This document shows positions 1,287 to 59,447 of a DNA stretch of 64,000 nucleotides, one piece after another. Positions within the stretch are counted from its first letter, which is position 1, and each line of letters begins with the position of its first letter. The stretch comes from Nitrospirota bacterium. GTDB taxonomy: Bacteria; Nitrospirota; 9FT-COMBO-42-15; HDB-SIOI813. The translations under genes were made by a program, and so were the position numbers. Under the pieces are notes generated by a model. It was not told the origin of the DNA, did not search any database, and worked only from the letters and a program-made list of their open reading frames with translations. The stretch is taken from positions 63-64,062 of the forward strand of contig JACRGV010000009.1 in NCBI GenBank assembly GCA_016212215.1. Reading direction: 5' to 3'.

Positions 1287-3017
1287 TTGAAGATGATGTA
1301 CAGTGGAAAACCTAAGATATTTATAATAGGGATTGATGGAGGTACTTTTGATCTTATTGAGCCGTGGGTAAATGAAGGACTTCTTCCTAATTTTGCAAGA
1401 TTGATGAAAGAAGGCTATTGGGGAAATCTTGAATCCACAATGCCCCCGATAACTGCCCCTGCATGGACATCCTTTATGACAGGTAAAAATCCGGGCAAGC
1501 ATGGACTGTTCCATTTTATAGAACCCGAGCCTGGACGTTATGAGATGCGGTACACAAATGCACTTTCAAGAAGGGCAAAAACATTATGGGCGATTCTCAA
1601 TGAAGCGGGTTTGAGTACAGGTGTGTTTAATGTACCTATGACATATCCGCCTGAGAAGTTGAATGGTTACTGTATTTCCGGATTGGATGCACCGGAAGAA
1701 AGCAGCAGGATATTTTATCCGGAATCATTGTATAAAGAGTTACAAAAAACATTTAACCGCAAAAAACTCGGTTTTCTTGGTGTTCAGTTTTTGGGTGAAA
1801 CAAGGTCCGACAACAAGCGTGATCAGTTTATCAAACGTTCTATGGAGGTTGAGGACTTTAAGACAGATATGATACTCCACTTAATGGAGACACACCCTAC
1901 GGATGTTGTTATGATGGTATTTCGTGCAACTGATCATTTTCAGCATCTGTTTTGGCATTTTATGGATCCTGCTCACCCGCGTTTTGACGCTGTTGGAGCA
2001 ATAAAATATAACAATGCAATACTTAAAATTTATCAGAATGTGGATATGAATATACAACGAATATTATCTTCTCTTTCAGATGATACATCTGTTGTCATGC
2101 TGTCAGATCATGGGGCAGGTGCAACGCCGCAGCGTGTTTTTTATGTTAATAGATTCCTGCAGGAAATAGGAATGCTTCATCTCAAGGGCGGCAATAATAG
2201 AGATGCCGGTTTAATTAATTATGGTGTTAAAAAAATGGATAAGGTTCTTCGAACTTTTCTACCTTCAGATACAAAGGCAACGCTTGTGAATAATTTCCCT
2301 ACTCTGAGGAGGAAATGGGAAGAACGTTCTACTCTTTTTTCTTCTATAGACTGGTCAAAGACAAGGGCATATTGTCATGAAGTGTTAACCAACCCTTCGA
2401 ATATTTGTATAAATGTAAAAGGAAAGATGCCTGAGGGTATTGTAAATCCTGGGAAAGAATACAAAGAAATAATTGAAAATATACGTGAACAACTCTACTC
2501 TCTGAAAGAGCCAAGGAGCAATGAACAGGTTATAAAAAAGGTTTATACAAAAGAAGAACTCTACAATGGCCCTTATTTAGAAGAAGCTCCTGATCTTACT
2601 CTTGCATGGTGGGAGGAAAATTCCTTTGTAGGGAGACCAAGTTTCGGAGTAACTTGCAAAGGTTCAGTGGATTATGTGGAGGATAAAATATCCACTGGAA
2701 CTGAGTGGAGCGGCACCCACAAGATGAATGGGGTATTTCTTCTAAAAGGACCTGGATTTAAAAAAGATACAGGCAAATATAACGCAAGTATTATGGACCT
2801 GACTCCAACACTTTTATATAGAATGGGTGTTCCGGTACCGAGAGATATGGACGGCAGGGTCTTAAAAGAGGCTTTCACAGATGATTTTATATCGTCCAAT
2901 CCGGTTAAATACTCAGATAACAGCGGTTCTCAGTTTGAACAACAGGAAGTGACTTATGAAGATGATGAGGCTGAGATGGTGAAAGCCAGGCTCAGAGACC
3001 TTGGATATGTGCAGTAA
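1287..3017 (+). CDS. Alkaline-phosphatase-superfamily protein (type I phosphodiesterase / nucleotide pyrophosphatase-like)
   Basis: N-terminal 'IIGIDGGTFDLI...LPN...PPITAPAWTSFMTGKNPGKHG' metal-binding/Thr-nucleophile block and 'MLSDHGAG' block are typical of the PF01663-like AP superfamily. Tandem paralog of the next gene. Confidence 0.65.
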   Translation: MKMMYSGKPKIFIIGIDGGTFDLIEPWVNEGLLPNFARLMKEGYWGNLESTMPPITAPAWTSFMTGKNPGKHGLFHFIEPEPGRYEMRYTNALSRRAKTLWAILNEAGLSTGVFNVPMTYPPEKLNGYCISGLDAPEESSRIFYPESLYKELQKTFNRKKLGFLGVQFLGETRSDNKRDQFIKRSMEVEDFKTDMILHLMETHPTDVVMMVFRATDHFQHLFWHFMDPAHPRFDAVGAIKYNNAILKIYQNVDMNIQRILSSLSDDTSVVMLSDHGAGATPQRVFYVNRFLQEIGMLHLKGGNNRDAGLINYGVKKMDKVLRTFLPSDTKATLVNNFPTLRRKWEERSTLFSSIDWSKTRAYCHEVLTNPSNICINVKGKMPEGIVNPGKEYKEIIENIREQLYSLKEPRSNEQVIKKVYTKEELYNGPYLEEAPDLTLAWWEENSFVGRPSFGVTCKGSVDYVEDKISTGTEWSGTHKMNGVFLLKGPGFKKDTGKYNASIMDLTPTLLYRMGVPVPRDMDGRVLKEAFTDDFISSNPVKYSDNSGSQFEQQEVTYEDDEAEMVKARLRDLGYVQ

Positions 3018-3039
3018 AATTGTGTAGAGACAGGGTACA

Positions 3040-3107
3040 TGGTTTTATTCCCCCTCCCTTGACTGGAGGGGGTTAGGGGGAGGGTGAGCTATGGAGATTT
3101 TCGGATG
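3040..3107. repeat. GC-rich palindromic mosaic repeat unit (REP/BIME-like)
   Basis: 'ccccctcccttgactggagggggttagggggagggtgagctatggagattttcggatgaa'. Hairpin plus the terminal ATG module that supplies the start of gene 3105. Confidence 0.8.
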
Positions 3108-4811
3108 AATAAGTTACTAATCATTGGCCTTGATGGCGGTACATTCGATTTAATAAAGCCCTGGGCAGGGAATGGGAAACTTCCCAATCTTTCGAGATTA
3201 TTAAATGAAGGCGTACATGCAAGGTTGAACAGCACTATCCCTCCGATGACATTTCCTGCATGGAATACATTTATGACAGGAAAGAATCCCGGGAAACATG
3301 GTGTTTATGATTTTACAGAGCGTAAACAGGGGAGCTATGAGGTACAGTTTGTAAATGGAGGGATGAGAAGAAGCAAGACCATCTGGCAGATTATGAATGA
3401 AGCAGGTAAGAATGTCGGTATAATGGCAGTACCTGCAACTTATCCGCCGGAAGAGGTCAAACATTTTATGATCAGCGGGTTTGATACTCCTGGTATGACA
3501 TCCCCTAAAGGCAAAGCCACATCAATGTATCCTCAGGAACTATTTGAGGAGTTAAACAAAGAGGTTGGGGAATATGTTGTTACATCAAATGTTCACGGAG
3601 ATATTGCAAAGGGTAACCTGGATATTGCAGAACAAAAAATCCTTGCAACAATTGAGAGAAAGGCGGCAAATGCCAAATATCTTTATAAGAAATATCAGCC
3701 CAACTGTTTCATGATTGTTTTTGGTGAGACAGATTTAGTGAGCCACAGTTTCTGGCATTTCTATGACCCTCGTTCTCCTCTTCATAATAAAGGTGAAGGT
3801 AGAAAATACAAGGATACTATACTTCATATTTATGAGAAGGTGGATGAAAAGATCGGCGAACTCTTATCCATGTCTTCAAAAGATACCGTGGTTATGATTA
3901 TGTCGGACCATGGATTTGGAGGGAGCGGGAATAAGGCAGTTTATCTTAACAATTGGCTGGCAGAAAATGGATTACTTGCTTTCAGGGATACGTCTTATTC
4001 ATCAATGAAAAATGACCTGCTTCAGGGGGTTAAACGTGCAGGGATAAAGTTCGTTCCGGCCAAATTAAAGGGGATATTGATGCGCAGTAACTCAGTAAAA
4101 TTTGTCAACAAGCTCGAATCCTCTTTAAGATTTTCACAAATAGAATGGTCCGGGACAATGGCATTTTCAGAAGAGACCCCTCATTTTCCTTCAATATGGG
4201 TAAATGTGAGAGGAAGGGACCCTGAAGGGATAGTAGCGCCGGGTGCAGAATATGAGAAAGTAAGAGATGAGATTATTCAGAAACTTTATAGTTTTAAAGA
4301 TCCGTATACATGTCAGCCTGTAGTCAATAAGGCATATCGCAGGGAAGAGGTTTATAAAGGGAATTATACTCAAAAGTCCCCGGATATTGTGATTGATTGG
4401 GCACTGACTGAAGGCTATACCTATCTCAGTGAACAGAGTAAGCCGAACAAGTTCAATGAATCTATAAGAAAACTAAGCCCATCGGAAGTTCATACTGCGA
4501 GGTTCGGGAGCCACCGTCAGCATGGCATCTTTATACTGCACGGAGGTCCGATTAAAAGAAACTTAGAGATTACAAATGCTAATATTGCAGACCTTGCCCC
4601 CACTGCCCTCTATTTACTTGACATCCCTGTGCCTGATGATATGGATGGGGTTGTCCTGAAGGATGCCATCAAAAAGGATTATATAACAGATCATCCATTG
4701 AAAATTGTAAACAACACCGGCGATTCTAACATTGAAAAAGATCCTGCAGGATATTCACAGGATGAAGAAGATGCAGTCAGGGATCGTCTTGCTGATATGG
4801 GTTACATATAA
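3105..4811 (+). CDS. Alkaline-phosphatase-superfamily protein, paralog of 1287-3017
   Basis: Same conserved blocks (LIIGLDGGTFDLI, PPMTFPAWNTFMTGKNPGKHG, MSDHGFG). The ORF track starts at GTG 3084 inside a repeat unit. ATG 3105 (MNKLLIIGLDGG) aligns with the paralog's N-terminus. Confidence 0.65.
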   Translation: MNKLLIIGLDGGTFDLIKPWAGNGKLPNLSRLLNEGVHARLNSTIPPMTFPAWNTFMTGKNPGKHGVYDFTERKQGSYEVQFVNGGMRRSKTIWQIMNEAGKNVGIMAVPATYPPEEVKHFMISGFDTPGMTSPKGKATSMYPQELFEELNKEVGEYVVTSNVHGDIAKGNLDIAEQKILATIERKAANAKYLYKKYQPNCFMIVFGETDLVSHSFWHFYDPRSPLHNKGEGRKYKDTILHIYEKVDEKIGELLSMSSKDTVVMIMSDHGFGGSGNKAVYLNNWLAENGLLAFRDTSYSSMKNDLLQGVKRAGIKFVPAKLKGILMRSNSVKFVNKLESSLRFSQIEWSGTMAFSEETPHFPSIWVNVRGRDPEGIVAPGAEYEKVRDEIIQKLYSFKDPYTCQPVVNKAYRREEVYKGNYTQKSPDIVIDWALTEGYTYLSEQSKPNKFNESIRKLSPSEVHTARFGSHRQHGIFILHGGPIKRNLEITNANIADLAPTALYLLDIPVPDDMDGVVLKDAIKKDYITDHPLKIVNNTGDSNIEKDPAGYSQDEEDAVRDRLADMGYI

Positions 4812-22197: not shown

Positions 22198-22254
22198 TAC
22201 TTAGCCTCCTTTGTTATTAAAATAACCTTAGGTAAAAAAGGAATGGCAGTCACT

Positions 22255-24405: not shown

Positions 24406-24653
24406 TCTCAGTCCCCCGCTTATTACCGTTGATTCATGTTGTATTTTAAGGGTTAACCATTCCAATTCTTTTAGTAATAAAATAGTATGCAAATCTTATG
24501 CCCGAATGTTGCCGGATATTATATGGCAAATGCTAATTATTTTGATATTTTTTGCAGGGGCGAAGAGGGTTTTTTACTGGAATATTTATCAGAGGCGGTG
24601 TTTATGGCATCCGCCTCTGATAAATTATTAAAGAATTTTATGGCAGATACGTT

Positions 24654-33125: not shown

Positions 33126-33214
33126 ACATAATTAACTCATTCCATCTGTTGACGCTCATTGAGCAATTGTGTTAGTATGTAGCAATTTTAAAGGGGCCAT
33201 AATAGGGGCCAAAA

Positions 33215-35042: not shown

Positions 35043-35100
35043 CTTCAAGGGGAGGGTTAGGGTGGGGATGGGGTTTATTCTTCGATGAATCAGGAGACAC
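35043..35100. repeat. REP/BIME-like unit
   Basis: 'ccctccccttcaaggggagggttagggtggggatggggtttattcttcgatgaa'. Confidence 0.8.
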
Positions 35101-35107
35101 AATTCTT

Positions 35108-35629
35108 ATGCAGCATATAATAAGCATTTTAGTAGAAAATAAATTCGGTGTGCTTTCAAGGGTGGCTGGGCTGTTCAGCGGCAGGGGGTTTAATATCGAG
35201 AGTATATCAGTCGGCACGACACTTGATTCTTCTACATCTCAGATTACAGTTGTGACTATGGGTGATGATCGGATCATAGAGCAGATAATCAAGCACCTGA
35301 ATAAGCTGATTGATGTTATAAAGGTCATTGACCTTTCTGAGAAGGATTATATTGTAAGGGAGGCAGCACTGATCAAGATACACACAAGCAGGCCGGAGGA
35401 CAGGAGCGAGGCATTAAGGATTACAGAAATATTCAGGGCAAGGGTCGTTGATTCTACACCATCAACATATACTGTTGAGATTACGGGTGATGAGAATAAG
35501 ATAGAGGCAATCATAAACCTGCTCCGCCCACTCGGCATAAAAGAGATCGTCAGGACAGGAAAGATAGCAATAGCAAGGGAAGACATGAAACAGACCGCCA
35601 TGCAGGAGTTGAAGAAGGTAAGAGCGTAA
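35108..35629 (+). CDS. ilvN: Acetolactate synthase small (regulatory) subunit
   Basis: ACT domain start 'HIISILVENKFGVLSRVAGLFSGRGFNIESISVG', adjacent to ilvB. Confidence 0.85.
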   Translation: MQHIISILVENKFGVLSRVAGLFSGRGFNIESISVGTTLDSSTSQITVVTMGDDRIIEQIIKHLNKLIDVIKVIDLSEKDYIVREAALIKIHTSRPEDRSEALRITEIFRARVVDSTPSTYTVEITGDENKIEAIINLLRPLGIKEIVRTGKIAIAREDMKQTAMQELKKVRA

Positions 35630-35713
35630 TAGGGATGAGCATAGAGCAGAAGTAAGAAGCAAGAAATTAGAAGTAAGAAGATTGTACTGATAATAAACAC
35701 TAAGGGGGAATGA

Positions 35714-36727
<1,014 letters not shown>

Positions 36728-36742
36728 CGGATAACGCAAAAA

Positions 36743-37195
36743 GCCCCCCCTCCCCTTAATCCCCTCCCGCAAGGGGAGGGGAGACATAAGAGAGATTCCT
36801 TACCCTGGGGGGAGCGGGTACATAGAATATGCTCAAGGGAGAGGGTACTAAGTTTATCCCCCCTCCCTTGACGGGAGGGGGTTAGGGGGAGGGTGAGCTA
36901 TGGTGATTTTCGGATGAACTCCCATGAGCGGGGCGATCACAAAGGGCAATGAAAACCCCACCCTCACCCTAACCCTCTCCCTGAGGGAGAGGGGGCTACG
37001 TTGATTCCCTCCCCTTCAAGGGGAGGGGTAGGGTGGGGATGGGGTTGATTTTCGGATGAACTCACATGAACCAGGGTTCACGAATGGCAATGAAAATCAA
37101 CGGGACAAGAATGTCCCGCCTATCCTCATAGATATGGATAGGCGGGGTTTTCTTACCCCGCCGGAAGGATTTTCGAGTGAGTTCAATCAGGAGGA
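36743..37195. repeat. Composite BIME-like cluster (at least 5 units in alternating orientation) + three-hairpin 75-bp module
   Basis: Alternating 'ccctcccc..ggggaggg' and inverse 'caccctcaccctaaccctctccctgagggagaggg' units joined by 'catga(a/g)cNNNgNtcacaaagg.catgaaaa' linker hairpins. Ends with 'cgggacaagaatgtcccgcctatcc…ggataggcggggttttcttaccccgcc'. Confidence 0.8.
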
Positions 37196-37207
37196 TGAAA
37201 ACAATAA

Positions 37208-37852
37208 ATGGATCGTAACAGTGCCCCGTTAGCAGCAGAAGGGGTGCCTTTTGTAATTATTTCCGGGGTTATATCCATTTTGCTCTTTCTTCCGGGATGG
37301 TTGATACCCGGCATTATTTCTTCTCTGCTTTTTCTTTTTATAGTATGGTTTTTCCGTAATCCTCAGCGGAGTATTCCGACCGGGAAAAATTTGGTTGTCT
37401 CTCCTGCGGACGGTAAGATCATTGTAATAAAGAAAGGCGAAGTTGACCGTGTTCTGAAAAAGAAGATGGTGAAGATAAGCATATTCATGAATGTCTTTAA
37501 TGTCCATGTGAACAGGATACCGTGCAAAGGAAAGATAGTTGATATACTCTACAATCCCGGGAAATTTGTATCTGCCAATTTAGATAAGGCATCCCTTGAG
37601 AATGAGCAGAATGCCGTTGTAATGGAGACTGAGAAAGGGGAGAAGGTACTTTTTATACAGATAGCAGGATTGATTGCAAGGAGGATCGTCTGCCGTCTCA
37701 AAACCGGTCAACGTGTTGAAAGGGGAGAGCGGTTCGGATTAATAAGGTTCGGGTCAAGGGTGGATGTGTATCTGCCTGAGACTGCTGATATTAAGGTATC
37801 AATAGGACAAAAGGTGAAAGGAGGCGAGAGTATTCTCGCGGCACTGAAATAA
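37208..37852 (+). CDS. psd: Phosphatidylserine decarboxylase (short-form proenzyme)
   Basis: PSD family signature around 'GERFGLIRFGSRVDVYLP' (GS cleavage/pyruvoyl site). Membrane N-terminus. Immediately upstream of pssA. Confidence 0.7.
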   Translation: MDRNSAPLAAEGVPFVIISGVISILLFLPGWLIPGIISSLLFLFIVWFFRNPQRSIPTGKNLVVSPADGKIIVIKKGEVDRVLKKKMVKISIFMNVFNVHVNRIPCKGKIVDILYNPGKFVSANLDKASLENEQNAVVMETEKGEKVLFIQIAGLIARRIVCRLKTGQRVERGERFGLIRFGSRVDVYLPETADIKVSIGQKVKGGESILAALK

Positions 37853-38631
37853 TGGAAAATACTAATCCCCAAAATCCCCAAAATCAAAAGATAGGTGTGT
37901 TTATCATACCAAGCCTGCTTACTTTGGCAAACCTGTTTTGCGGTTTCTATGCAATTATAGGGATTCAGAAGTCCGACTACACGCTTGCTGCATGGGCCAT
38001 TCTCTTAGGGATGTTGTTTGACAGCTTTGACGGCAAGATAGCGAGACTTACAAATTCAACCAGCCGTTTCGGTATTGAGCTTGATTCCCTTGCTGACCTT
38101 GTTTCATTCGGCGTTGCGCCCGGTCTGTTGATTTATTCATGGGCATTAAACGGTTACGGCAAGATAGGATGGCTTGCAGTGTTCCTGTTTGTAGCATGCG
38201 GGGCTATCAGGCTTGCAAGGTTCAATACACAGGCAACAAGTTCTGCAAGCAATTATTTTACGGGATTACCAATTCCAGCGGCAGCCGGTCTCATAGCTAC
38301 CACAGTTATTTTTGATAGCCATATACTTGAGATGGGTAACGAGGTAAGGCCGATTGTAGTGCTTCTTATGACTTACATCCTTGCATACCTTATGGTGAGC
38401 ACAATAGGGTACCGGAGTTTCAAAAATGTTCACCTTGGAGAAAAGAAGTCTGTGTCTGCCCTTGTTGCAGCAGTTCTTGTAATTATTATTATAATTGCAG
38501 AACCGCAGATAATGCTGTTTGTAATCTTTGCTTTATATGCATCATTAGGGCCTTCAGAGAGGGTTCTTCTGCCGTTGATAAAGGCTATTCGTCATAAGGT
38601 GCATCATAAGGGGGAAGGGAAAGTTGCGTAG
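37852..38631 (+). CDS. pssA: CDP-diacylglycerol--serine O-phosphatidyltransferase (CDP-alcohol phosphatidyltransferase family)
   Basis: Motif DG(x2)AR(x8)G(x3)D(x3)D present: '[28 protein letters not shown]'. Start overlaps the psd stop (TAATGG), and the 3' end overlaps the leuA start. Confidence 0.75.
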
Positions 38632-40135
38632 AATTAAGATATTTGATACCACACTGAGAGACGGGGAACAGTGTCCCGGCGCCAGTATGAATAAGGAGGA
38701 AAAGCTTACAGTTGCAAGACAACTGGCCAGGCTTAATGTAGATATAATTGAGGCAGGTTTTCCAATTGCATCAGAAGATGATTTTGATGCGGTAAGACTC
38801 ATTGCAGGGGATGTAAAAGGGCCTGTGATTGCAGGGCTTGCAAGGGCGAGAAAAGAAGATATAGAGCGTGCGGCCGAGGCGGTAAAGATTGCTGAACGTT
38901 CAAGGATACATACATTTATTGCAACATCTGAGATACATATACAACAGAAACTTAGGATGAGCCGTGAGGAGGTTATCGAAGCCGCTGTTGCTGCGGTCAG
39001 ACTTGCGAGACAGTTTACAGATGATGTGGAATTTTCTGCAGAGGACGCCTCAAGGAGTGATATAGATTTTCTGTGCAGGGTGGTGGAAGCGGCCATTAAT
39101 GCAGGTGCATCCACTATAAATATACCGGATACTGTCGGCTATGCACTCCCTGATGAGTTTGGTGAATTAATCGGCAGTATAATGAACAGAGTTCCCAATG
39201 TTGATAAGGCGGTGATAAGTGTTCATTGCCATAATGATCTGGGGCTTGCAGTTGCAAATTCCTTATCCGCTGTCCTTGCAGGGGCAGGTCAGGTGGAGTG
39301 TACTATAAATGGTATTGGAGAGAGGGCCGGCAATGCCTCTATGGAAGAGGTTGTTATGGCCTTAAAGACGAGGGGACAATATTTTAGTGCGGACACCGGT
39401 ATTACTACGCAGGAGATTTATAAATCAAGCAGACTTGTGAGCACAATAACCGGCATGGTTGTTCAGCCGAATAAGGCGATCGTCGGGGCTAATGCCTTTG
39501 CCCATGAGTCCGGAATCCATCAGGACGGGCTGTTGAAAGATAAAAGGACCTATGAGATAATGACGCCTGAATCTGTTGGAATATCTGAGCACAAATTAGT
39601 GCTTGGAAAACATTCAGGCAGGCACGCATTCAAGAATAAACTCGTGGAGATGGGATACAACATCTCAGAGGATGAGATAAACAAGGCGTTTGAACGATTC
39701 AAGAAGCTTGCTGACCAGAAGAAAGAGGTCTTTGAGGAAGATTTGGACGCAATTGTAACTGAGGAGGTTTACCGGATACCTGAGAGATTTGTATTGAAAA
39801 ATTTACATGTGGAAAGCGGCAGTAATGTAACCCCTGCGGCAATGGTTGAACTTGAGATAGACGGCAGGAGTGTTACGAACAAATCGTCCGGAGACGGGCC
39901 GGTAGACGCCACCTACAGGACTATAAAAGAGATGGTAAAGACAAACAGCATCCTGTTGTCTTATGAAGTCAAAGCTATAACAGGCGGGACAGACGCACTC
40001 GGCGAAGTTACAGTAAGACTTGAAGAAAATGGAAGAACAGTAGTCGGCCAGGGTGCAGACACAGATATTATAATAGCCAGTGCAAAGGCATATCTGAATG
40101 GACTGAACAGGATGGAGAGCAGGAAAAAGCAGTGA
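38624..40135 (+). CDS. leuA: 2-isopropylmalate synthase
   Basis: '[11 protein letters not shown]' and '[12 protein letters not shown]' signatures, plus the C-terminal LeuA dimerisation domain. Confidence 0.9.
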
Positions 40136-40560
40136 ATCGTGATTAGTGAATGGTGAATAGTAAAGGCCCCCTCACCCGGAGCCTCTCCCTGAGGGGGAGG
40201 GGGCTACGTTGATTCCCTCCCCTTCAAGGGGAGGGGTAGGGTGGGGATGGGGTTGATTTTCGGATGAACTGTCATGAAACGGAGGTTTCACAAAGGAGGA
40301 TGAAAACCACCCCCCCAATCCCCCCCTTGTTAAGGGGGGGAAAGTTCCTTTGGTGCTCAATGGCCAACGGCAATCCCCCCCTTTGTTCAAGGGGGGGCAT
40401 GGGGGGGTCATTTTCGGATGAACCCACATGAACCAGGGTTCACAAAGGGACATGAAAATCAGCGGGACAAGAAAGTCCCGCCTATCCTCGTAGAGATGGA
40501 TAGGCGGGGTTTTCTTACCCCGCCGGAAGGGATTTTCGGATGAATGCAAATGAGGTTAAA
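40126..40560. repeat. Composite BIME-like cluster incl. 3' 'cagtgaat' module, variant C-tract hairpins and three-hairpin module
   Basis: Starts at leuA's last codons ('aaagcagtgaatcgtgattagtgaatggtgaatag'). Contains 'cccccctt gttaa gggggg' variant hairpins. Ends with the 75-bp module before leuC. Confidence 0.8.
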
Positions 40561-40562
40561 CT

Positions 40563-41861
40563 ATGCCAATGACTTTAACAGAAAAAATATTAGCGAGACA
40601 TGCACACAGAGACAGTGTAAAACCCGGAGATAATGTATGGGTTGATGTAGATGTCCTTATGACCCATGATGTCTGCGGCCCGGGCACGATAGAGATTTTT
40701 AGACGTGAATTCGGGGCAGGGGCAAAGGTTTGGGATCGTGAACGGGTTGTAATTATCCCTGACCACTACATTTTTACGGAAGATGTTTATGCAAGAAGAA
40801 ATATAGATATCCTGCGTGAGTTTGCAATAGAACAGGGGATTAAAAACTTCTATGACGTGGGTTCTCCTAATTATAAGGGAGTTTGTCATGTAGCCCTATC
40901 AGAGGAAGGGCATACAAGACCCGGTGAAGTCCTGTTCGGTACTGACTCTCACACATGCACGGCAGGTGCATTCGGTGAATTTGCAACAGGCATAGGAAAT
41001 ACTGATGCCGCCTTTATCCTTGGAACCGGTAAGCTCTGGGTTAAGGTGCCTCCGACAATGAGATTTGTGTTTGAAGGAGAGATACCGCCGTATCTGATGG
41101 CAAAGGATTTGATACTCCATATTATCGGCGATATTGGTGTGGATGGAGCAACTTATAAGGCAATGGAATTTGCAGGAGAGGGGATTTCAGGACTCTCAGT
41201 AGAAGAACGTATGACGATCTGCAATATGGCCATCGAGGCAGGTGGAAAGAACGGGATAATTGCACCTGATGACAAGGCTGTTGCCTTTGTGAAGCAGAGG
41301 ACAAAAATACCTTTTCAGCCGCTTTATGGAGATGCTAATGCAGTTTATGAATCTGTAAAGGTTTATAAGATGAAAGACCTTGAACCTGTTGTTGCAAAAC
41401 CCCATTCACCTGATAACAAGGCCCTTGTTAGAGAGGTAAAAGGTACCAGGGTTGACAGGTGTTATATCGGTTCCTGTACCGGAGGGAAGTTAGAGGACTT
41501 CATGGCTGCTGCAAGGATATTTAAGAGGAACAATGCAAAAGTGGAGACATATATAGTACCATCAACCACAGAGGTCGAAAGGCGTTTAAAAGAGGAAAAG
41601 ATTGATGGAGAAACCCTCTATTCTATCTTCCAGAGGGCGGGAGTAAAGATTTCTGATAATGCATCCTGTGCCGCATGTCTCGGCGGACCGCCGGACACCT
41701 TTGGACGGCTCAGCGGGGATGAGGTATGTATCTCTACAACCAACAGAAATTTCCCCGGCAGAATGGGTTCAAAAGGTTCTCAGGTATACCTTGCATCACC
41801 ACTGACAGTAGCAGCATCAGCAGTCAGGGGTGTGATAACAGACCCGCGGGAGTTTGTGTGA
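40563..41861 (+). CDS. leuC: 3-isopropylmalate dehydratase large subunit
   Basis: Aconitase-family blocks and Fe-S cysteines (…GSCTGG…, …NASCAACLG…). Confidence 0.9.
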   Translation: MPMTLTEKILARHAHRDSVKPGDNVWVDVDVLMTHDVCGPGTIEIFRREFGAGAKVWDRERVVIIPDHYIFTEDVYARRNIDILREFAIEQGIKNFYDVGSPNYKGVCHVALSEEGHTRPGEVLFGTDSHTCTAGAFGEFATGIGNTDAAFILGTGKLWVKVPPTMRFVFEGEIPPYLMAKDLILHIIGDIGVDGATYKAMEFAGEGISGLSVEERMTICNMAIEAGGKNGIIAPDDKAVAFVKQRTKIPFQPLYGDANAVYESVKVYKMKDLEPVVAKPHSPDNKALVREVKGTRVDRCYIGSCTGGKLEDFMAAARIFKRNNAKVETYIVPSTTEVERRLKEEKIDGETLYSIFQRAGVKISDNASCAACLGGPPDTFGRLSGDEVCISTTNRNFPGRMGSKGSQVYLASPLTVAASAVRGVITDPREFV

Positions 41862-41875
41862 AAATAACCTCTTAG

Positions 41876-42063
41876 ATTTCCCTCCCCCTTGAGGGGGGAG
41901 GGGCAGGGTGGGGGTGAGCTATGGAGATAATCAGATGAACTCCCATGAAACAGGGTTTTACAAAGGGGCATGAAAATCAGCGGGACAAGAATGTCCCGCC
42001 TATCCTCAATTTACACATGGATAGGCGGGGTTTTCTTACCCCGCCGGAGGAATTTTTCGAATG
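41876..42063. repeat. BIME-like cluster + three-hairpin module ending in leuD start codon
   Basis: 'ccctcccccttgaggggggaggggcagggtgggggtgagctatggagataatcagatgaactcccatgaaacagggttttacaaaggggcatgaaaatcagcgggacaag…ttttcgaATG'. Confidence 0.8.
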
Positions 42064-42621
42064 AAAGATATTATCAGGGGTAAAGCCTACGTTCTATGCA
42101 ATGACATTGATACTGACCAGATTATTCCGGCACAGCATCTTGTGTACAGCCTGAGTGACCATGAAGAGAGGAAGATGTACGGACGGTTTGCATTATCAAG
42201 CGTCCCGGATTCTCTGGCCGGTCTGCCTGATGGACATATCAGGTTTGTTAAAGATGATACCTTTAAATCAGAGTTTAATATAATTATAGCCGGTAAGAAT
42301 TTCGGATGCGGCTCATCGCGTGAACATGCACCGATTGCTTTGAACATAGCAGGGGTCGAGGCAGTTGTTGCTGAATCTTATGCAAGGATTCATTACAGAA
42401 ACGTTGTTGACGGCGGTTTCTTTATCCCCTTTGAAATAAATCAGCATATTTATAAGGAAGCAAAAACAGGGGATGACATTGAAATTGATGTAAAGAAAGG
42501 CATCCTTAAAAACCTTTCACAGGACAAGGAATATAAACTTCAGCCATTGGGTGATGTAGAAGCAATACTGCGGGCCGGTAGTATATTTGAGTATGCCAGG
42601 CAAGAGGGGATGCTGAAGTAA
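42061..42621 (+). CDS. leuD: 3-isopropylmalate dehydratase small subunit
   Basis: Aconitase swivel-domain blocks (IIAGKNFGCGSSREHAP). Its ATG lies inside the terminal 'ttttcgaATGaaa' module of the upstream repeat. Confidence 0.85.
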   Translation: MKDIIRGKAYVLCNDIDTDQIIPAQHLVYSLSDHEERKMYGRFALSSVPDSLAGLPDGHIRFVKDDTFKSEFNIIIAGKNFGCGSSREHAPIALNIAGVEAVVAESYARIHYRNVVDGGFFIPFEINQHIYKEAKTGDDIEIDVKKGILKNLSQDKEYKLQPLGDVEAILRAGSIFEYARQEGMLK

Positions 42622-42697
42622 GAAGATTGATGCTATAGGCAAGAATTAAGAAGTAAGAAGCAAGAAGATAGAGACACAAGTTAGAGAAAAAAAGATA

Positions 42698-45732: not shown

Positions 45733-46893
45733 ATGAACAGAATATACCTTGACCATGCAGCGACTACTCCAATAAGGCCGGAAGTTATTGAGGCTATGCA
45801 GCCTTATTTCAGCAATTTCTTTGGGAATCCATCGAGCCTCCATTATTTCGGGAAGGAGACTGCAAATGCTATTAAAGACGCAAGAGAGAAGATTGCGGCA
45901 ATAATAGGGGCGCGTTGGGATGAGATTGTCTTTGTAAGCGGCGGGACAGAATCGGACAATCTTGCCATATTCGGTACCGCCTTTGCGAACAGGGATAAGG
46001 GAAGGCATATAATAACATCATGTATTGAACATCATGCTGTTCTTGAACCATGTCGCTTCCTTGAGAGGGAGGGATGGAAGGTCACGTATCTTCCGGTAGA
46101 CAGATATGGGATGGTAAATCCTGAAGATGTAAAAGATGCAATTACTGATGAGACATTTTTAATCTCAATTATGCATGCTAATAATGAAATAGGCACTATT
46201 CAGCCTATGAAGGAGATAGGGGCAATTGCAAAGGAGAGGGGTGTCATATTTCATTCAGATGCTGTTCAGACGTTTTCCCATATTCATGTAAATGTTGACG
46301 AACTTAATGTAGACCTGCTTTCTTTCTCCGGTCATAAATTCTATGGTCCTAAAGGTATCGGTGGTCTTTATGTAAGAAAAGGTACTGCAATATCTCCTCA
46401 TATACATGGGGGGTATCAGGAGTTTAAACTCAGGGCCGGTACAGAAAATGTTGCAGGGATTGTAGGTGTTGCAAAGGCAGTACAGCTTGCATCTCTTGAG
46501 ATGGTTGCACAGACCGCTTATGTAATGTCCCTGAGGGACAGGCTTGTTGAGTCCATTCTTGAGATAGATGGTATTAAACTTAACGGGCATCCAGGGAACA
46601 GGCTCCCCAATAATATAAATATTACTGTTGATTTTGTTGACGGAGAGGCAATGCTGATAAACCTTGATTTCAAAGGTATTGCAGTATCCACAGGCTCTTC
46701 ATGCAGGTCTGCGATTAAAGGGCCGTCACATGTGTTAACCGCTATCGGCAGGACGTATGAAGAGGCGAGGAGCGCCGTTAGAATCACACTCGGTAAGGAT
46801 AACACTGAAAAAGAGATTGTCTACTTTATTGAGGTTTTTAAAGATATTTTAACTAACCTGAGAAAGATGTCGCCGGTGTATCAAAAGCAGTGA
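45733..46893 (+). CDS. Cysteine desulfurase (NifS/IscS family, class V aminotransferase)
   Basis: 'IYLDHAATTP', PLP-Lys region 'FSGHKFYGPKGIGGLYVR', catalytic Cys loop 'STGSSCRSA'. Confidence 0.8.
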   Translation: MNRIYLDHAATTPIRPEVIEAMQPYFSNFFGNPSSLHYFGKETANAIKDAREKIAAIIGARWDEIVFVSGGTESDNLAIFGTAFANRDKGRHIITSCIEHHAVLEPCRFLEREGWKVTYLPVDRYGMVNPEDVKDAITDETFLISIMHANNEIGTIQPMKEIGAIAKERGVIFHSDAVQTFSHIHVNVDELNVDLLSFSGHKFYGPKGIGGLYVRKGTAISPHIHGGYQEFKLRAGTENVAGIVGVAKAVQLASLEMVAQTAYVMSLRDRLVESILEIDGIKLNGHPGNRLPNNINITVDFVDGEAMLINLDFKGIAVSTGSSCRSAIKGPSHVLTAIGRTYEEARSAVRITLGKDNTEKEIVYFIEVFKDILTNLRKMSPVYQKQ

Positions 46894-46925
46894 ATAGTGA
46901 ACAGTGAACAGTGAATAGTTAACTA
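46886..46925. repeat. 3' 'cagtgaat' tandem module overlapping the NifS-like gene stop
   Basis: 'aaagcagtgaatagtgaacagtgaacagtgaatagttaac', ~80% identical to the 40126-40165 module after leuA. Confidence 0.7.
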
Positions 46926-46994: not shown

Positions 46995-47090
46995 ATCCCT
47001 ATCCAGCCAGGGGAGAGGGTGTTAAGTTTATTCCCCCTCCCTTGACGGGAGGGGGTTAGGGGGAGGGTGAGCTATGGATATTTTCACATG
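46995..47090. repeat. BIME-like units upstream of queA
   Basis: 'ccagccaggggagagggtgttaagtttattccccctcccttgacgggagggggttagggggagggtgagctatggatattttcacATG'. Confidence 0.8.
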
Positions 47091-48122
47091 ACATATACAT
47101 TATCAGATTTTGATTATACATTTGATCCTTCACTCATAGCACAGTATCCACTGCCTGAACGGGATAGCTCAAGGCTATTGGTTTTAGATAGAAAGCACAA
47201 TAGGATTGAACACAGGAGGTTCTACGAAATAGGTGAGTATCTGAGAGAAGGTGATATGCTCATTGTGAATAATACCCGTGTAATCCCTTGCAGGCTTATC
47301 GGTAAGAAAGAGCATACCGGCGGGATGACCGAACTTCTGCTGATAAAAAGGATTGAAGAAGATGTTTGGGAAGTAATGTTAAAGGGAAGAGCAAAGAAAG
47401 GTAATAAGATCATTTTCTCTTCCTCATTAAATTGTGATGTGCAGGACCGTAGAGATGCCCGTAAAGATGAATATACAATCGTTAAGTTTAATTATTACGG
47501 TGACTGGGATACAATACTTTCAGAAACCGCTAACATACCCATTCCCCCTTATATAAGGAGGAAACCGGTTGAAGGAGATAAGGAATGGTATCAGACGGTT
47601 TTCGCCTTATATAAAGGTTCTATTGCAGCGCCGACTGCCGGGCTGCATTTTACAGAAAAATTGCTGTTTGATTTAAAATCAAAAGGTATTATAATAGCCG
47701 CTGTTACGCTGCATGTCGGTGTAGGGACATTTAAACCTGTTAATGTTGAAAGTATTGATGATCATAAAATGCATCCTGAATATTTTGATGTCAGTAAAGA
47801 GCTTGCTGATACCATAAGAAGGGTTAAAGCAAACGGTGGAAGGATAATTGCCGTCGGCACTACATCAGTCCGTGCATTGGAACATGCGGCAATAAGCGGA
47901 GAGGTAATGGCCGGAAAAGGTGAAACCGGCATATTTATTCATCCCGGATTTAAATTTAATGTTATAGATGCAATGGTAACCAACTTTCACCTTCCTAAAT
48001 CAACCCTTTTAATGCTTGTAATGGCATTAGCAGGGAGGGAAGGTATATTAACTGCATATTCAGAGGCAGTCTCATTGCGTTACCGTTTTTATAGTTATGG
48101 TGACGCAATGTTGATTTTATAA
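47088..48122 (+). CDS. queA: S-adenosylmethionine:tRNA ribosyltransferase-isomerase
   Basis: QueA blocks (DFDYTFDPSLIAQYP, LIVNNTRVIPCRL, TAGLHFT, VGTTSVRALE). The track start 47067 is a GTG inside the repeat; ATG 47088 is the likely start. Confidence 0.85.
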   Translation: MTYTLSDFDYTFDPSLIAQYPLPERDSSRLLVLDRKHNRIEHRRFYEIGEYLREGDMLIVNNTRVIPCRLIGKKEHTGGMTELLLIKRIEEDVWEVMLKGRAKKGNKIIFSSSLNCDVQDRRDARKDEYTIVKFNYYGDWDTILSETANIPIPPYIRRKPVEGDKEWYQTVFALYKGSIAAPTAGLHFTEKLLFDLKSKGIIIAAVTLHVGVGTFKPVNVESIDDHKMHPEYFDVSKELADTIRRVKANGGRIIAVGTTSVRALEHAAISGEVMAGKGETGIFIHPGFKFNVIDAMVTNFHLPKSTLLMLVMALAGREGILTAYSEAVSLRYRFYSYGDAMLIL

Positions 48123-51431: not shown

Positions 51432-51680
51432 GTGAAAATGGGTAACAATGTCTCCGACAAATTATCTATAATTGAAATCCTCGAAGAAGCCATCAAAAAA
51501 GAGCATGCATCCTGTGAGTTTTACAACAATGCTGCTTCTTCCGCTCTAAAACCTTCATCAAAAAAGATGTTCCATAAACTCGCAGAGATGGAGATGGGAC
51601 ATGCCAATGAACTTAAAAGGCACCTGTTAGATGTTGAGGCTCAGTTGCTCATTGACAAGGCTTTAACATCGAATTTCTGA
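51432..51680 (+). CDS. Small ferritin/rubrerythrin-like protein
   Basis: Two E-x2-H diiron-type motifs (EAIKKEH..., EMEMGHANE) in an 82-aa helical protein. Low confidence. Confidence 0.4.
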   Translation: MKMGNNVSDKLSIIEILEEAIKKEHASCEFYNNAASSALKPSSKKMFHKLAEMEMGHANELKRHLLDVEAQLLIDKALTSNF

Positions 51681-51682
51681 TA

Positions 51683-52040
51683 AACCCTCATGAGCGAGGC
51701 GCTCACAAAGGACAATGAAAACCCCACCCTCACCCTAACCCTCTCCCTGAGGGAGAGGGGGCTATGTTGATTCCCTCCCCTTCAAGGGGAGGGGTAGGGT
51801 GGGGATGGGGTTGATTTTTGGATGAACCGCCATGAGCCTTCGGCTCACAAAGGTACATGAAAATGAGGCCCCCTCACCCGGAGCCCCCCTCCTGCCTCCC
51901 CCCGCAAAGGAGGGGGGAGAAATTTGGTAGGAATTTAATTGCAGCTCTCCCGCCAGGGGAGAGGGATGCTAAGTTTTTCCCCCTCCCTTGACGGGAGGGG
52001 GTTAGGGGGAGGGTGAGCTATGGAGATTTTCGGATGAACT
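51683..52040. repeat. Composite BIME-like cluster (at least 5 units)
   Basis: Linker hairpins with compensatory stems (tgagcg-ag-gcgctca; tgagcc-ttc-ggctca). Ends with the 'gattttcggATGaa' module. Confidence 0.8.
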
Positions 52041-53054: not shown

Positions 53055-53140
53055 AGATGAGCGTAGGGGAGAAGTAAGAAGTTAGAAGTAAGAAGTTAGA
53101 AGCAAGAAGTAAGAAGTTAGAAGTAAGAAGGCTGAAGACT
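53055..53140. repeat. Heptamer tandem repeat (gtaagaa/gttagaa)n, about 11 units
   Basis: 'gaagtaagaagttagaagtaagaagttagaagcaagaagtaagaagttagaagtaagaaggctgaag', immediately after the E1alpha stop. Confidence 0.8.
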
Positions 53141-54261: not shown

Positions 54262-54332
54262 GCATAGGCTGAAGGCTGAAGGTAGAAGCAAGAGGCAAGA
54301 AGTTAGAAGTTAGATTGCTATATGATCTAAAA

Positions 54333-54380
54333 TTCCCTCCCCTTCAAGGGGAGGGTTAGGGTGGGGATGGGGTTGTTTTT
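54333..54380. repeat. REP/BIME-like unit upstream of E2
   Basis: 'ccctccccttcaaggggagggttagggtggggatggggttg'. Confidence 0.8.
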
Positions 54381-54382
54381 CA

Positions 54383-55723
54383 ATGCATGAAATAATAATG
54401 CCACAGATGGGTGAAAGCGTTGTTGAAGGGACGATATTAAAGTGGCTTGTTGATGAAGGTCAGCGAGTAGAGAAAGACCATCCCCTTGTTGAAATCAGTA
54501 CAGATAAGATTGACACTGAAATACCGTCACCTTTCTCAGGGATATTAAAAACCATAGTTCACAAGCAAGATGAGACCGTTCCTGTAGGGAAAGTTATTGC
54601 GTTTATTGAGGAATTTAAGGATGATGAAAAAATACCCCCTCCCCTTAATCCCCTCCCGCGAGGGGAGGGGAAATTAATGGTGCAAACGGGGGGAGAGGGT
54701 GCTAAGCTTATCTCACCTCCCTTGAGGGGAGTTCCTTCGTTTGTCCCCTCCCCCTTGACGGGGGAGGGCCAGGGTGGGGGTGAGCAAGAGCAAAGAAATA
54801 TATTTACCCCTCTCGTAAAACGCCTCTCCAGAGAATACGGTATTGACCTGGATGAGATTAATAAGATTACCGGTACAGGTGCAGGGGGCAGGATTACGAA
54901 AGATGATATTCTGGACTATGTTGAGAGAACCCAAAAGATGCCGCTTATTGCTATTGCAAAACCATCTCCTGTTGAGGCAATAAAACCTGAAACAAGAGAA
55001 GAGATTATTCCTTTGAGCAATAAGCGAAGGATCATTGCAGAGAGGATGGTTAAAAGTAAAACAGAGATACCTCATGTCACAACAACATTCGAAGCAGACC
55101 TGACAGGTATCACCCGATTCAGGTCTTTGAATAAAGACATCATATTAAAAGAACATGGTGTTCACCTCACCTTTCTTCCTTTTATTATTAATGCTGTTAC
55201 TTCAACGATCAGGAAGTATCCCATACTTAATGCTATGTGGAATGGAAATGAGATTATAATTAAAAAATATATAAATATCGGGATAGCTGTTTCATTGGAG
55301 GACGGCCTTATAGTCCCTGTTATTAAAGATGCTGATAAAAAGGGACTGGTAGAGCTTGCAAGAGAGAGCCAGGAACTCGCAAAGCGTGCACGAGAGAAGA
55401 ACCTCGGATTGGAAGACCTGCAGGATGGGACGTTTACTATCACTAACTATGGCATTGGAGGGAGTCTGTTTGGGACTCCAATAATTCTGCCGTCACAAAC
55501 AGCAATACTAGGAATCGGTGCAATTATGAAGAGGGCTGTTGTTATAGGTGATGCCATAGCAATCAGGGACATGGTTTATCTAAGCCTCTCATTTGACCAC
55601 CGCGTTATTGACGGTGCACAGGCTGACCGGTTCATGGCAGATGTTAAAGAAGATCTGGAAGGATGGAGAGGTAAGATTGAAAAGGTGTCTGCTGATGCGT
55701 CCGGGTTTGGTGGAGTATGGTAA
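54383..55723 (+). CDS. Dihydrolipoamide acyltransferase (E2) with lipoyl domain, PSBD and catalytic domain
   Basis: Lipoyl-Lys motif 'EISTDKIDTEI', PSBD 'PLVKRLSREYGIDLDEINKITGTGAGGRITKDDI', catalytic 'SLSFDHRVIDGA'. The linker (54636-54785) is encoded by GC-rich repeat units. Confidence 0.8.
   Translation: MHEIIMPQMGESVVEGTILKWLVDEGQRVEKDHPLVEISTDKIDTEIPSPFSGILKTIVHKQDETVPVGKVIAFIEEFKDDEKIPPPLNPLPRGEGKLMVQTGGEGAKLISPPLRGVPSFVPSPLTGEGQGGGEQEQRNIFTPLVKRLSREYGIDLDEINKITGTGAGGRITKDDILDYVERTQKMPLIAIAKPSPVEAIKPETREEIIPLSNKRRIIAERMVKSKTEIPHVTTTFEADLTGITRFRSLNKDIILKEHGVHLTFLPFIINAVTSTIRKYPILNAMWNGNEIIIKKYINIGIAVSLEDGLIVPVIKDADKKGLVELARESQELAKRAREKNLGLEDLQDGTFTITNYGIGGSLFGTPIILPSQTAILGIGAIMKRAVVIGDAIAIRDMVYLSLSFDHRVIDGAQADRFMADVKEDLEGWRGKIEKVSADASGFGGVW
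54636..54785. repeat. BIME-like units located INSIDE the E2 coding sequence (lipoyl-PSBD linker), in frame
   Basis: 'ccccctccccttaatcccctcccgcgaggggaggggaaa…ggggggagagggtgctaagc…cctcccttgaggggag…cccctcccccttgacgggggagggccagggtgggggtgagc', translated as PPPLNPLPRGEGK…GGEGAKLISPPLRGVPSFVPSPLTGEGQGGGE. Confidence 0.8.
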
Positions 55724-56557: not shown

Positions 56558-57019
56558 GTGCGTCAGCAATGGCTTGACCAGCGGGAGTTGATAGATTCAA
56601 TGGTTGATAATAGTCCGGCAAGTCCTGCAGGTCTTCCATTAAAGAAAGGCAGGGAGGTCAACCTGATTGACCCTGCTATAATGGAAATACCAAGTACGAT
56701 TACTATAAGCCGAAATAACAAAAATACCATTGCCAATGGTGCAGGAGGAAGTGTTCTTGCTGAACCTGCTGCTGCAAGCGAAGGGGCAGAAGTTTTTTAT
56801 ACAGGAAATAATTATGCATCATATTCTACAAATGGCGGCGCTATATGGGTTAATGTTCCTATACCGGCAGGTCCTGCCGATGCCTCGCTCCCATGCTGTG
56901 ATAATGATGTAATCCATGACAAAGGGCAGCAAGAAGTTAGAAGCAAGAAGTTAGAAGTAAAGATTGGCTGCCACTTCCCTATTTTTAGCTTTCCCCCCTC
57001 CATTGACGGGAGGGGTTAG
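56558..57019 (+). CDS. Hypothetical protein (possible 3' part of a disrupted secreted-protein gene beginning at 56366)
   Basis: The track ORF starts at GTG. It is in the same frame as the signal-peptide ORF 56366-56477, separated by a single TAA. The 3' end runs into a heptamer/GC-hairpin repeat. Confidence 0.3.
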   Translation: MRQQWLDQRELIDSMVDNSPASPAGLPLKKGREVNLIDPAIMEIPSTITISRNNKNTIANGAGGSVLAEPAAASEGAEVFYTGNNYASYSTNGGAIWVNVPIPAGPADASLPCCDNDVIHDKGQQEVRSKKLEVKIGCHFPIFSFPPSIDGRG

Positions 57020-57050
57020 GGGGAGGGTGAGCTATGGGTATTTCCGAGTG
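56990..57050. repeat. REP/BIME-like unit with GTG variant of the terminal start module
   Basis: 'ccccctccattgacgggaggggttagggggagggtgagctatgggtatttccgaGTGaaa'. Confidence 0.75.
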
Positions 57051-57320
57051 AAACATAAGATTATACATATCTCAATCTTATTCTCAATCTCAATCCTTAC
57101 CTTATTTTCCACCTCCTGCAATTATCAGTCAAAAGAAAAGAATGTTGATTCAATCAAAAATCTTCATAAACAAACAGAAGGCACTTATCCTTTAAATAAA
57201 GAAGAGATTAAACAGGATACAAATGTTGACTATGAGAAACCTGCCCCGCCTCTCACCCCTGAGGAAAGACAAAGATTAATTGACAGTACAGAAAAAGAAG
57301 ACAAGGACGATAAGAAATAG
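57048..57320 (+). CDS. Small lipoprotein (hypothetical)
   Basis: GTG start inside the repeat-terminal module ('tttccgaGTGaaa'). 'ILFSISILTLFSTSC' lipobox, followed by a low-complexity Lys/Glu-rich tail. Confidence 0.4.
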   Translation: MKHKIIHISILFSISILTLFSTSCNYQSKEKNVDSIKNLHKQTEGTYPLNKEEIKQDTNVDYEKPAPPLTPEERQRLIDSTEKEDKDDKK

Positions 57321-59186: not shown

Positions 59187-59361
59187 TCTTGCCTCTTTCA
59201 ATAAGAAAATATATAATCCTTCCACTTTGAAAAACCATTTCTCACACAAAGACACAAAGGGACTGAAAATTAAATTATCCTTCGACAGGCCTGTCCTGAG
59301 CGAAGCCGAAGGGCTCAGGATGACATCCATGGTGTCATGGTGAACCTGTCGAACCATGACA

Positions 59362-59447
59362 AGAAAATCAGCGGGACAAGAATGTCCCGCCTATCCTCAT
59401 AGATATGGATAGGCGGGGTTTTCTTACCCCGCCGGAGGGGGCGGATG
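59362..59447. repeat. Three-hairpin 75-bp module (copy 5) supplying the TonB receptor ATG
   Basis: 'cagcgggacaagaatgtcccgcctatcctcatagatatggataggcggggttttcttaccccgccggagggggcggATGaac'. Confidence 0.8.

Follow-up and report, generated by a model that had tools for sequence, protein, structure and literature searches.

An intergenic repeat family in a Nitrospirota bacterium whose units end in a putative translation-initiation module

Introduction

Can an intergenic repeat provide the start codon of the gene that follows it? The question is raised by a 64-kb stretch of one contig (hereafter the window; 41% GC) from an uncultivated Nitrospirota bacterium, in which GC-rich repeats between genes end in an ATG or GTG at the beginning of the next open reading frame (ORF). 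A preliminary description of this DNA had proposed that the repeat has become part of the translation-initiation region of several genes. We found that the repeats form a modular family, in which GC-rich hairpin units of types A, B, C, D and X are joined by a covarying linker hairpin, L, into arrays that reach ~450 nt, and that the genes concerned are co-directional, with every unit on their transcribed strand. The explanation that we favour, and consider reasonably probable from the sequence, is that every unit of this intergenic family ends in a translation-initiation module, which at least six genes use as their start. Counts refer to the window unless other genomes or contigs are named. 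The loci from other genomes and contigs with which it was compared are labelled L001 to L120, labels that are distinct from the name of the linker unit L.

Results and discussion

Several unit types end in the same sequence

The 13-mer ATTTTCGGATGAA occurs in seven exact copies and one copy with a single mismatch, all on the plus strand, against 0.16 expected. It had been described as the module of one repeat; it is instead shared, as the 3' end, by at least four unit types, A (CCCCCTCCCTTGACGGGAGGGGGTTAGGGGGAGGGTGAGCTATGGAG-ATTTTCGGATGAA), B (CCCTCCCCTTCAAGGGGAGGGTTAGGGTGGGGATGGGGTTG-ATTTTCGGATGAA), C (GCGGGACAAGAATGTCCCGCCTATCC..GGATAGGCGGGGTTTTCTTACCCCGCCGGAAGGG-ATTTTCGGATGAA) and D (CCCCCCCTTTGTTCAAGGGGGGGCATGGGGGGGTC-ATTTTCGGATGAA). 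The A-type 24-mer GAGCTATGGAGATTTTCGGATGAA has four matches at up to three mismatches (exact at 3086 and 52015, one mismatch at 36895, three at 41916), where none is expected, and a comparison with the GTDB representative genomes gave no match. The 24-mer had also been quoted for positions 42040-42066, which in fact read CCCGCCGGAGGAATTTTTCGAATGAAA: this is the end of a type C unit that matches the terminal module at 11 of 13 positions, with no match to the 'gagctatgg' part of the quoted sequence. Type C units, five in the window, are in every case the last unit before a gene.

The layout is the same at every unit end: a tract of purines, which reads GGAG, GGAGG or GGAAGG, is followed by the U-rich spacer ATTTTCGG and then by ATG and AA. 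The tract resembles a ribosome-binding site (RBS), as had been suspected, and precedes the ATG by 8 nt in type A (GGAG) and by 9-10 nt in type C (GGAGG or GGAAGG). Taken together, these elements make the terminal module a complete predicted bacterial translation-initiation region. Hexamers of the ATGAA type are present at every unit boundary; the window as a whole has no excess of ATGAA (251 copies, 247 expected).

Most exact copies of the 13-mer (5/7) lie away from gene starts. Four of them are followed by the linker L, as at 36906..36918 (plus strand), where the sequence continues into L and no gene follows, and one opens a 10-codon ORF before leuC. In the latter (40532..40572, plus strand), the ORF runs from ATG 40540 and ends as ATGA on the second ATG of leuC (40569), from which the product begins with MTLTEK as in L003. 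Further internal copies on the plus strand are found at 37048, 40256, 40410, 41927 (a variant) and 51814 (one mismatch).

Genes predicted to start at the module

The ATG or GTG of the module appears to be the only plausible start of six genes, which encode AP2 (the second of two AP-superfamily paralogues), LeuD, QueA, an E2 acyltransferase, a small lipoprotein and a TonB receptor. Four of these codons had been named before (ATG 3105, 42061 and 59445, and GTG 57048), and they are indeed the first or only sensible starts of the ORFs downstream; queA (ATG 47088) and the E2 gene (ATG 54383) extend that list. In AP2, a Pfam domain begins three residues past Met-3105, and an identical 568-aa product is called from there in an independent assembly. 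An A unit (47026..47092, plus strand) ends in ATG 47088, and position 2 of the QueA equivalog model falls three residues past this Met, with no other start codon between Met-47088 and the alignment. Similarly, a B unit (54332..54390, plus strand) ends in ATG 54383, and both position 2 of the E2 model and the start of the lipoyl domain fall at residues 1-2. The N-termini predicted from the module ATG are MNKLLIIGLDG for AP2, MTYTLSDFDY for QueA and MHEIIMPQMGES for E2. The lipoprotein is preceded by an A unit (56986..57052, plus strand) whose terminal GTG 57048 opens VKHKIIHISILFSISILTLFSTSC, which has a signal peptide and a lipobox-like Cys-24. Before the TonB receptor stands a C unit (59363..59447, plus strand) that ends in GGAGGGGGCGG ATG. 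The receptor ORF has this ATG, at 59445, as its first start codon past a stop, and a signal peptide follows. The start proposed earlier for the receptor stands; its repeat has only CGGATGAAC in common with the consensus.

The module also coincides with gene starts in other genomes: pheT in L105 (MKATIKWLKEYV), cysD in L099, leuD in L007 and the TonB receptor in L118, whose ortholog is 86% identical and is preceded by GGAGATTTTCGG directly before ATGAAC. In L099, cysD is on the opposite (minus) strand and the module is co-oriented with it.

These observations bear on the idea that the module ATG is unused, the true starts lying elsewhere and the match to ORF starts being an artefact of ORF calling. 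We regard this as very improbable. For about five genes that follow a repeat (ilvN, psd, leuC, E1alpha and the aminotransferase gene), the real start is 4-52 nt downstream of the module ATG, so that the role in initiation first proposed for the repeat end holds for several genes and is not general. However, the domains of AP2, QueA and E2 begin 0-3 residues past the module Met, with no alternative start between, and the N-terminus MKDI of LeuD is kept across relatives. The sole alternative for AP2 and queA, a GTG 21 nt upstream, is itself within the repeat. As noted in the preliminary description, this GTG, in gGTGagctatgg, opens the extensions of the ORF track at 3084 and 47067. Such repeats mislead gene callers, which produce spurious GTG extensions and misplaced starts.

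Insertion into overlapping gene junctions

The nearest relatives are metagenome-assembled genomes (MAGs) from groundwater and sediment, with LeuD identities of 76-82% among GTDB genomes and 94-96% among Logan contigs; the LeuD of the window has no exact match on record. Comparison with close relatives indicates that the arrays are insertions, and two of them could be resolved.

Between AP1 and AP2, the window has an 89-nt A-type insert (3019..3107, plus strand) that is absent in L116. It ends in GGAGATTTTCGGATG, with the AP2 start ATG at 3105-07. In L116 (AP2 82% identical), the two genes overlap as GGATATGTCCAATAAATTACT, and AP2 starts with MSNKLL from an ATG inside AP1. The window reads GGATATGTGCAGTAAA, then the 89-nt A unit ending ..TTTTCGGATG, then AATAAGTTACT, and AP2 begins with MNKLL. 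The insert is flanked on the left by the hexamer AGTAAA (3013..3018, plus strand; ancestral AATAAA), which holds the AP1 stop, and on the right by AATAAG (3108..3113, plus strand; ancestral AATAAA), which forms AP2 codons 2-3. The old AP2 ATG is still present, in the 3' end of AP1; the repeat contributes the new one. Since AP2 of L116 uses a different ATG, the start used in the window is repeat-borne. Two further loci were considered as empty sites, L119 (TonB receptor, 67% identical) and L120 (AP2, 60% identical), and were set aside as too diverged or rearranged. In L120, the N-terminus of the AP2 homolog derives from a heptamer repeat, ACTCAAA, of about five copies (3001-3060; ..KTQNSKLKTQN..), another entry of a simple repeat into a gene 5' end in this group.

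The second insert is a 197-nt array of an A unit, an L linker and a C unit between leuC and leuD (41864..42060, plus strand), absent in L001 and L003. In these two loci (leuD 94% and 80% identical), leuC and leuD overlap by ATGA (GTATGAAAGAT; GGGAGTTTGTATGAAAGAT), and more distant Nitrospirales have short, repeat-free spacers between the two genes. The window sequence GAGTTTGTGTGAAA/ATAACC aligns with GAGTTTGTATGAAAGAT of L001, and the full junction reads GAGTTTGTGTGAAA, the 197-nt array and ATGAAAGAT, with RTGAAA on both sides. By alignment with L001, the left copy, GTGAAA (41858..41863, plus strand), holds the leuC stop TGA (41859-61); the right copy, ATGAAA (42061..42066, plus strand), is the leuD start codon and a Lys codon, and opens the MKDII kept in all relatives. 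The C unit ends with a hairpin like those of repetitive extragenic palindromic (REP) elements (GGCGGGGTTTTCTTACCCCGCC, 42024-45), GGAGG (42046-50) and a U-rich spacer (42051-60), together 42024..42060 on the plus strand. The leuD hidden Markov model begins at residue 7, and the start ATGAAAGAT and the N-terminus MKDII are the same in relatives with or without repeats; nothing was thus replaced, and the insert reconstitutes the start.

The two sites follow one pattern. Both inserts lie in a stop/start overlap, and an A-rich hexamer is present in duplicate around each (RTGAAA at leuC/leuD, AATAAA at AP1/AP2). The left copy retains the stop of the upstream gene. On the right, the module ATG has taken the place of the old start at AP2, whereas at leuD the two are one and the same. 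The check proposed earlier, whether orthologs without the repeat show that an ancestral start was replaced, thus gives a yes for AP2 (MSNKLL in L116, MNKLL here) and a no for leuD, whose start is unchanged. As judged from these alignments, start donation is real for AP2, and leuD is a case of reconstitution. A repeat insertion has thus rewritten the N-terminus of one protein and restored that of another exactly, and the empty sites show selfish intergenic repeats invading even overlapping gene junctions, bringing with them a ribosome site and a start codon. By inspection, neither insert has terminal inverted repeats (the ends of 3019-3107 and of 41864-42060 are not complementary), and the window encodes no REP-associated (RAYT) transposase.

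Five other loci (L002, L004, L005, L007 and L115) carry five different inserts at the same leuC/leuD junction, four of which end in a U-rich tract followed by ATGAAA. One could ask whether the 13-mer is the native leader and start context of this lineage, immobile, with GC-rich hairpins inserting just upstream of it. About one third of the ORFs in the window open with ATGAA, and L004, with no GC-rich hairpin unit there, reads GGGTATTTTGGATGAAA ahead of leuD, as such an explanation would have it. We nevertheless find it improbable: repeat-free relatives are without ATTTTCGG before leuD (L001, L003) and before AP2 (L116), six copies are internal to arrays and followed by L rather than by genes, and genes of the window without repeats do not have the motif.

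A separate observation concerns assembly. The loci L117 and L118, from two independent short-read assemblies, both end, at their position 1, inside the repeat, 22-23 nt upstream of the module ATG. The repeats break metagenome assemblies and are therefore probably under-represented in MAGs.

Mini-ORFs overlapping gene starts

The module is frequently associated with a second feature, an ATG-initiated mini-ORF of 5-20 codons whose stop overlaps the start of the gene. It is present at 10 of 15 repeat-preceded genes and at 2 of 21 controls (Fisher p = 5e-4), and 2000 shuffles of the upstream 75 nt gave a mean of 3.5 +/- 1.5 and a maximum of 9, never reaching the 10 observed. When each unit design is counted once, the figure is 8/13 (p = 0.0035). 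Type A has the most compact form: before AP2 (3079..3108, plus strand), GGAGG and 7 nt precede the mini-ORF ATG GAG ATT TTC GGA TGA (MEIFG), whose stop overlaps the AP2 ATG, and the layout recurs at queA (47074-47091) and the lipoprotein gene (57034-57051). Types B and C have analogous mini-ORFs of 6 and 15 codons. The B unit of E2 has one of seven codons that ends 5 nt into the gene (54367-54390, plus strand), and the C unit of leuD has one of 15 codons, MDRRGFLTPPEEFFE and a stop, whose TGA overlaps the leuD ATG as ATGA (42017..42064, plus strand). Diverged copies keep the overlap of stop and start at the actual gene start even where this is not the module ATG; mini-ORFs are found at leuB (10 codons, ATGA overlap), asd (13 codons, TAATG), E1alpha (20 codons) and psd (7 codons). 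This suggests that the overlap is a portable translational coupler.

A plausible mechanism can be outlined. On the mRNA, the hairpin bodies would fold and the U-rich module would stay weakly structured and recruit ribosomes, and this recruitment would replace the direct stop/start coupling lost on insertion. It could be direct or pass through termination and re-initiation from the mini-ORF, in which case a ribosome ending the mini-ORF would re-initiate on the gene and unwind the local structure, as in synthetic two-cistron designs. If coupling by mini-ORFs is true, it would be a natural, repeat-borne counterpart of bicistronic design and a new route to rewiring operon translation on short evolutionary timescales.

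Several points weigh against the explanation that we favour. The census covers a single window, the copies of one repeat family are non-independent observations, and all starts are inferred from homology and ORF logic. A clear Shine-Dalgarno sequence precedes the mini-ORF only in type A (GGAGG, 7 nt upstream); the type C mini-ORF has no obvious one and is buried in strong helices. Other genomes keep the mini-ORF only in part, and it is absent in L005, L007, L105 and L118. As for the insertions, the direction of change at AP2 is given by one relative plus the flanking duplication. With two sites resolved, the target duplication may measure anywhere from 1 to 6 bp, an ambiguity that arises because the element end ATGAA resembles the target. 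At leuD, L115 has the left junction GTGTRAAAATAA in common with the window and a different, AT-rich insert, so that the history of this site was multi-step. Finally, the internal copies of the 13-mer, next to L, are the best conserved, 4 of 6 being exact, whereas copies at gene starts match at 8-13 of 13 positions. This difference suggests that the sequence is kept mainly for the repeat and that its use as a start is secondary; the 13-mer probably serves the repeat first and translation second.

Taken further, the last point leads to an alternative in which there is exaptation only. ATTTTCGGATGAA would be kept for the repeat's purposes, as a recombination or cleavage core or as part of L, its use as a start would be an accident of survivable insertion sites, and the purine tract and mini-ORFs would be by-products. 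We consider this possible, if rather unlikely. Besides the conservation of internal copies and the absence of mini-ORFs in several genomes, it would account for the ATGAA-type hexamers that bound every unit, three of which are carried by L (two of them exactly 10 nt apart), and any gene start of the form ATGA automatically gives an overlapping TGA. It fits less well with the overlaps kept in diverged variants that do not use the module ATG (leuB, asd, leuC, E1alpha), enriched as they are relative to controls and shuffles, with the ideal spacing of GGAGG before the type A mini-ORF, and with the strict co-orientation of module and downstream gene, which extends to the opposite strand in L099.

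The explanation that we favour, an initiation module at every unit end, can also be extended in the other direction. The repeats would then be an undescribed class of mobile, modular, RNA-structured cassettes of groundwater Nitrospirota that end in a two-cistron device (Shine-Dalgarno sequence, mini-ORF, ATGA overlap and start). They would prefer A-rich hexamers at stop/start junctions and split coupled genes non-lethally by bringing a replacement coupler, and a dedicated recombinase or RNA-binding protein would recognise L, whose conserved ATGAA-type flanks are spaced by 10 nt. This extended proposal is tentative, and we hold it to be doubtful as a whole.

The linker and the structure of the arrays

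The linker L spans ~40 nt and has the form ATGAAC-NNN-CATGA, covarying hairpin, CACAAAGG-NN-CATGAAAA. The copy before leuD is at 41935..41976 (plus strand), and others are found at 36914-36955, 37056-37096, 40264-40306, 40418-40458, ~51675-51721 and 51822-51863. Across 12 aligned copies, drawn from four genomes, hairpin pairing stands at 94%, with compensatory changes in 4 of 6 pairs and invariant flanks, which implies that L is a selected structure, in RNA or in single-stranded DNA. Because the hairpin varies in length, L is not coding, and a relay of mini-ORFs through it, which we considered, keeps its frame only at chance level (3/6 copies): L is structural. We likewise rejected a hammerhead or other ribozyme, since the core does not fit (for example, a C where G5 is needed) and Rfam has no match for L. 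An outer helix GATTTTC/GAAAATC closing each unit was also discarded, being 66% paired with no informative covariation.

The leuD array (41864-42060) folds 3.1 standard deviations better than its shuffles (z = -3.1), and most arrays sit between co-transcribed genes. Between 33 and 60 kb, the window consists of plus-strand operons (ilvBNC, psd, pssA, leuA, leuC, leuD, leuB, asd, the aminotransferase gene, queA and others), whose gene order is kept in relatives and whose intergenic gaps are crowded with repeats. Given this setting, the arrays might be regulators of the ilv-leu genes, either amino-acid-responsive leader-peptide attenuators or elements similar to riboswitches. They do lie inside the ilv-leu operon, and within the C unit the pairing CCCGCCTATCC/GGATAGGCGGG and two local hairpins exclude each other. 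But the same units precede unrelated genes (AP2, queA, E2, the lipoprotein and the TonB receptor), the mini-ORFs show no excess of Leu, Ile or Val codons, and terminator-like sites are not enriched in the window (18 against 16.7 expected). No Rfam family matched anywhere in the window at the gathering threshold, and lowering the threshold to E <= 5 for 36700-42100 returned only generic hairpin matches to miRNA models, far under their cut-offs. Such a regulatory role is, in our view, extremely improbable.

A consensus scan for promoters gave no promoter-like match inside any array body. The only matches near arrays, at 35094-35121 and 47088-47117, start at or just past the module end and run into the gene. 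Upstream of ilvB, between a truncated repeat unit and the gene, there is a sigma-70-like promoter at 33149-33178 (TTGACG, 18 nt, TAGTAT, with an upstream TG), which is likely to be the start of the array-carrying operon. A G-quadruplex is conceivable in B units (e.g., 35047-35075, 37018-37046), where the tract GGGGAGGGTTAGGGTGGGGATGGGG combines five G-runs with a TTAGGG. It would lie on the transcribed strand, a short way before the ribosome site, and compete with the hairpin CCCTCCCC/GGGGAGGG.

Relation to known repeats and couplers

By description, the closest precedent is REP2 of Neisseria together with the similar IR sequences of Borrelia plasmids (Delihas 2011, PMC3184786, citing Parkhill 2000 and Morelle 2003), repeats that have, besides a promoter and an RBS, an ATG that is fused to ORFs. 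REP2 is a single unit of 120-150 bp, which has its own promoter and marks a co-regulated gene set. The family described here is like REP2 in being a multi-copy intergenic repeat with internal stem-loops, no terminal inverted repeats, and a predicted RBS and an ATG within the repeat that, by sequence and homology, form the downstream start. It is unlike REP2 in being modular, the module being the common end of several units in arrays inside operons. It also differs in having no promoter signal and in having the linker L, the mini-ORF layout and evidence of insertion into stop/start overlaps. Sequence homology between the two is unlikely given the phylum. A search of the literature on Nitrospirae repeats found no description of this family, which thus appears to be undescribed, although the REP2-like kind is known from Neisseria.

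The arrays also resemble the REP elements and bacterial interspersed mosaic elements (BIMEs) of enterobacteria and pseudomonads, which are GC-rich imperfect palindromes in mosaics with short linkers, located between co-transcribed genes and with fast turnover between strains. Unlike these, which sit 3' of genes and supply no start codons, the units here have a fixed orientation relative to the downstream gene. The C hairpin GGCGGGGTTTTCTTACCCCGCC (22 nt) is found exactly in 31 JGI metagenome contigs (L084-L114), mostly with unrelated flanks. The module is present in only two of them (L099 and L105), and most have the hairpin alone, which looks like a widespread REP-type element of sediment and groundwater bacteria. 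REP-associated transposases recognise the tetranucleotide GTAG. At the position before the C hairpin, all five window copies have ATAG, and 18 of the 31 unrelated metagenome contigs have GTAG.

As for the mini-ORFs, the relevant comparison is with two-cistron, or bicistronic design, expression cassettes, reportedly described by Schoner in 1986 and by Mutalik in 2013. The type A end has the same parts: GGAGG, 7 nt, and a 5-codon ORF that holds a second GGAG and whose stop overlaps the ATG as ATGA. Unlike those cassettes, this putative coupler is natural, repeat-borne, multi-copy and only partly kept in relatives. Natural translational coupling through ATGA and TAATG is the subject of reviews (PMC6728339 and PMC12548453).

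There are also likenesses to miniature inverted-repeat transposable elements (MITEs) and in-frame palindromes such as the Rickettsia palindromic elements (RPE) and pneumococcal BOX and RUP, which are short mobile repeats, non-coding in themselves, with the ability to lengthen or invade coding regions. Both resolved sites here have short flanking duplications. Unlike MITEs, neither resolved insert has terminal inverted repeats, and the units are strand-specific with respect to genes. Within the E2 gene (54383-55723), GC-rich units of this family occupy about 160 nt (54627-54785) in frame and code for the stretch that connects the lipoyl domain to the E3-binding domain (..IPPPLNPLPRGEGKLMVQTGGEGAKLISPPLRGVPSFVPSPLTGEGQGGGE..); one array is thus translated as an inter-domain linker, in the manner of the Rickettsia elements.

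Other repeats in the window

Another widespread repeat, GTCCTGAGCGAAGCCGAAGGGCTCAGGATGACA and its relatives, joins the same arrays in three genomes: at 59283-59320 in the window, at ~6620-6690 in L003, and at 1260-1345 and 1980-2060 in L007. Tandem arrays of heptamers (AGAAGTA, AGTGAAT, CAGTGAA; 4-9 copies) begin at stop codons or within about 30 nt of them, at 35648-35680, 40131-40161, 42641-42667, 46888-46923, 53070-53130 and 56928-56958, and at 2995-3030 in L001. Their period of 7 puts stop codons into each of the three frames, and they recall the TAACTGA heptamers described in Beggiatoaceae and cyanobacteria (PMC4679880). Finally, three large tandem genes on the minus strand (18312-24492) have internal periodic units of 150-180 nt (families D1, D6, D14, D16 and D20), which are unrelated to the start-module repeats.

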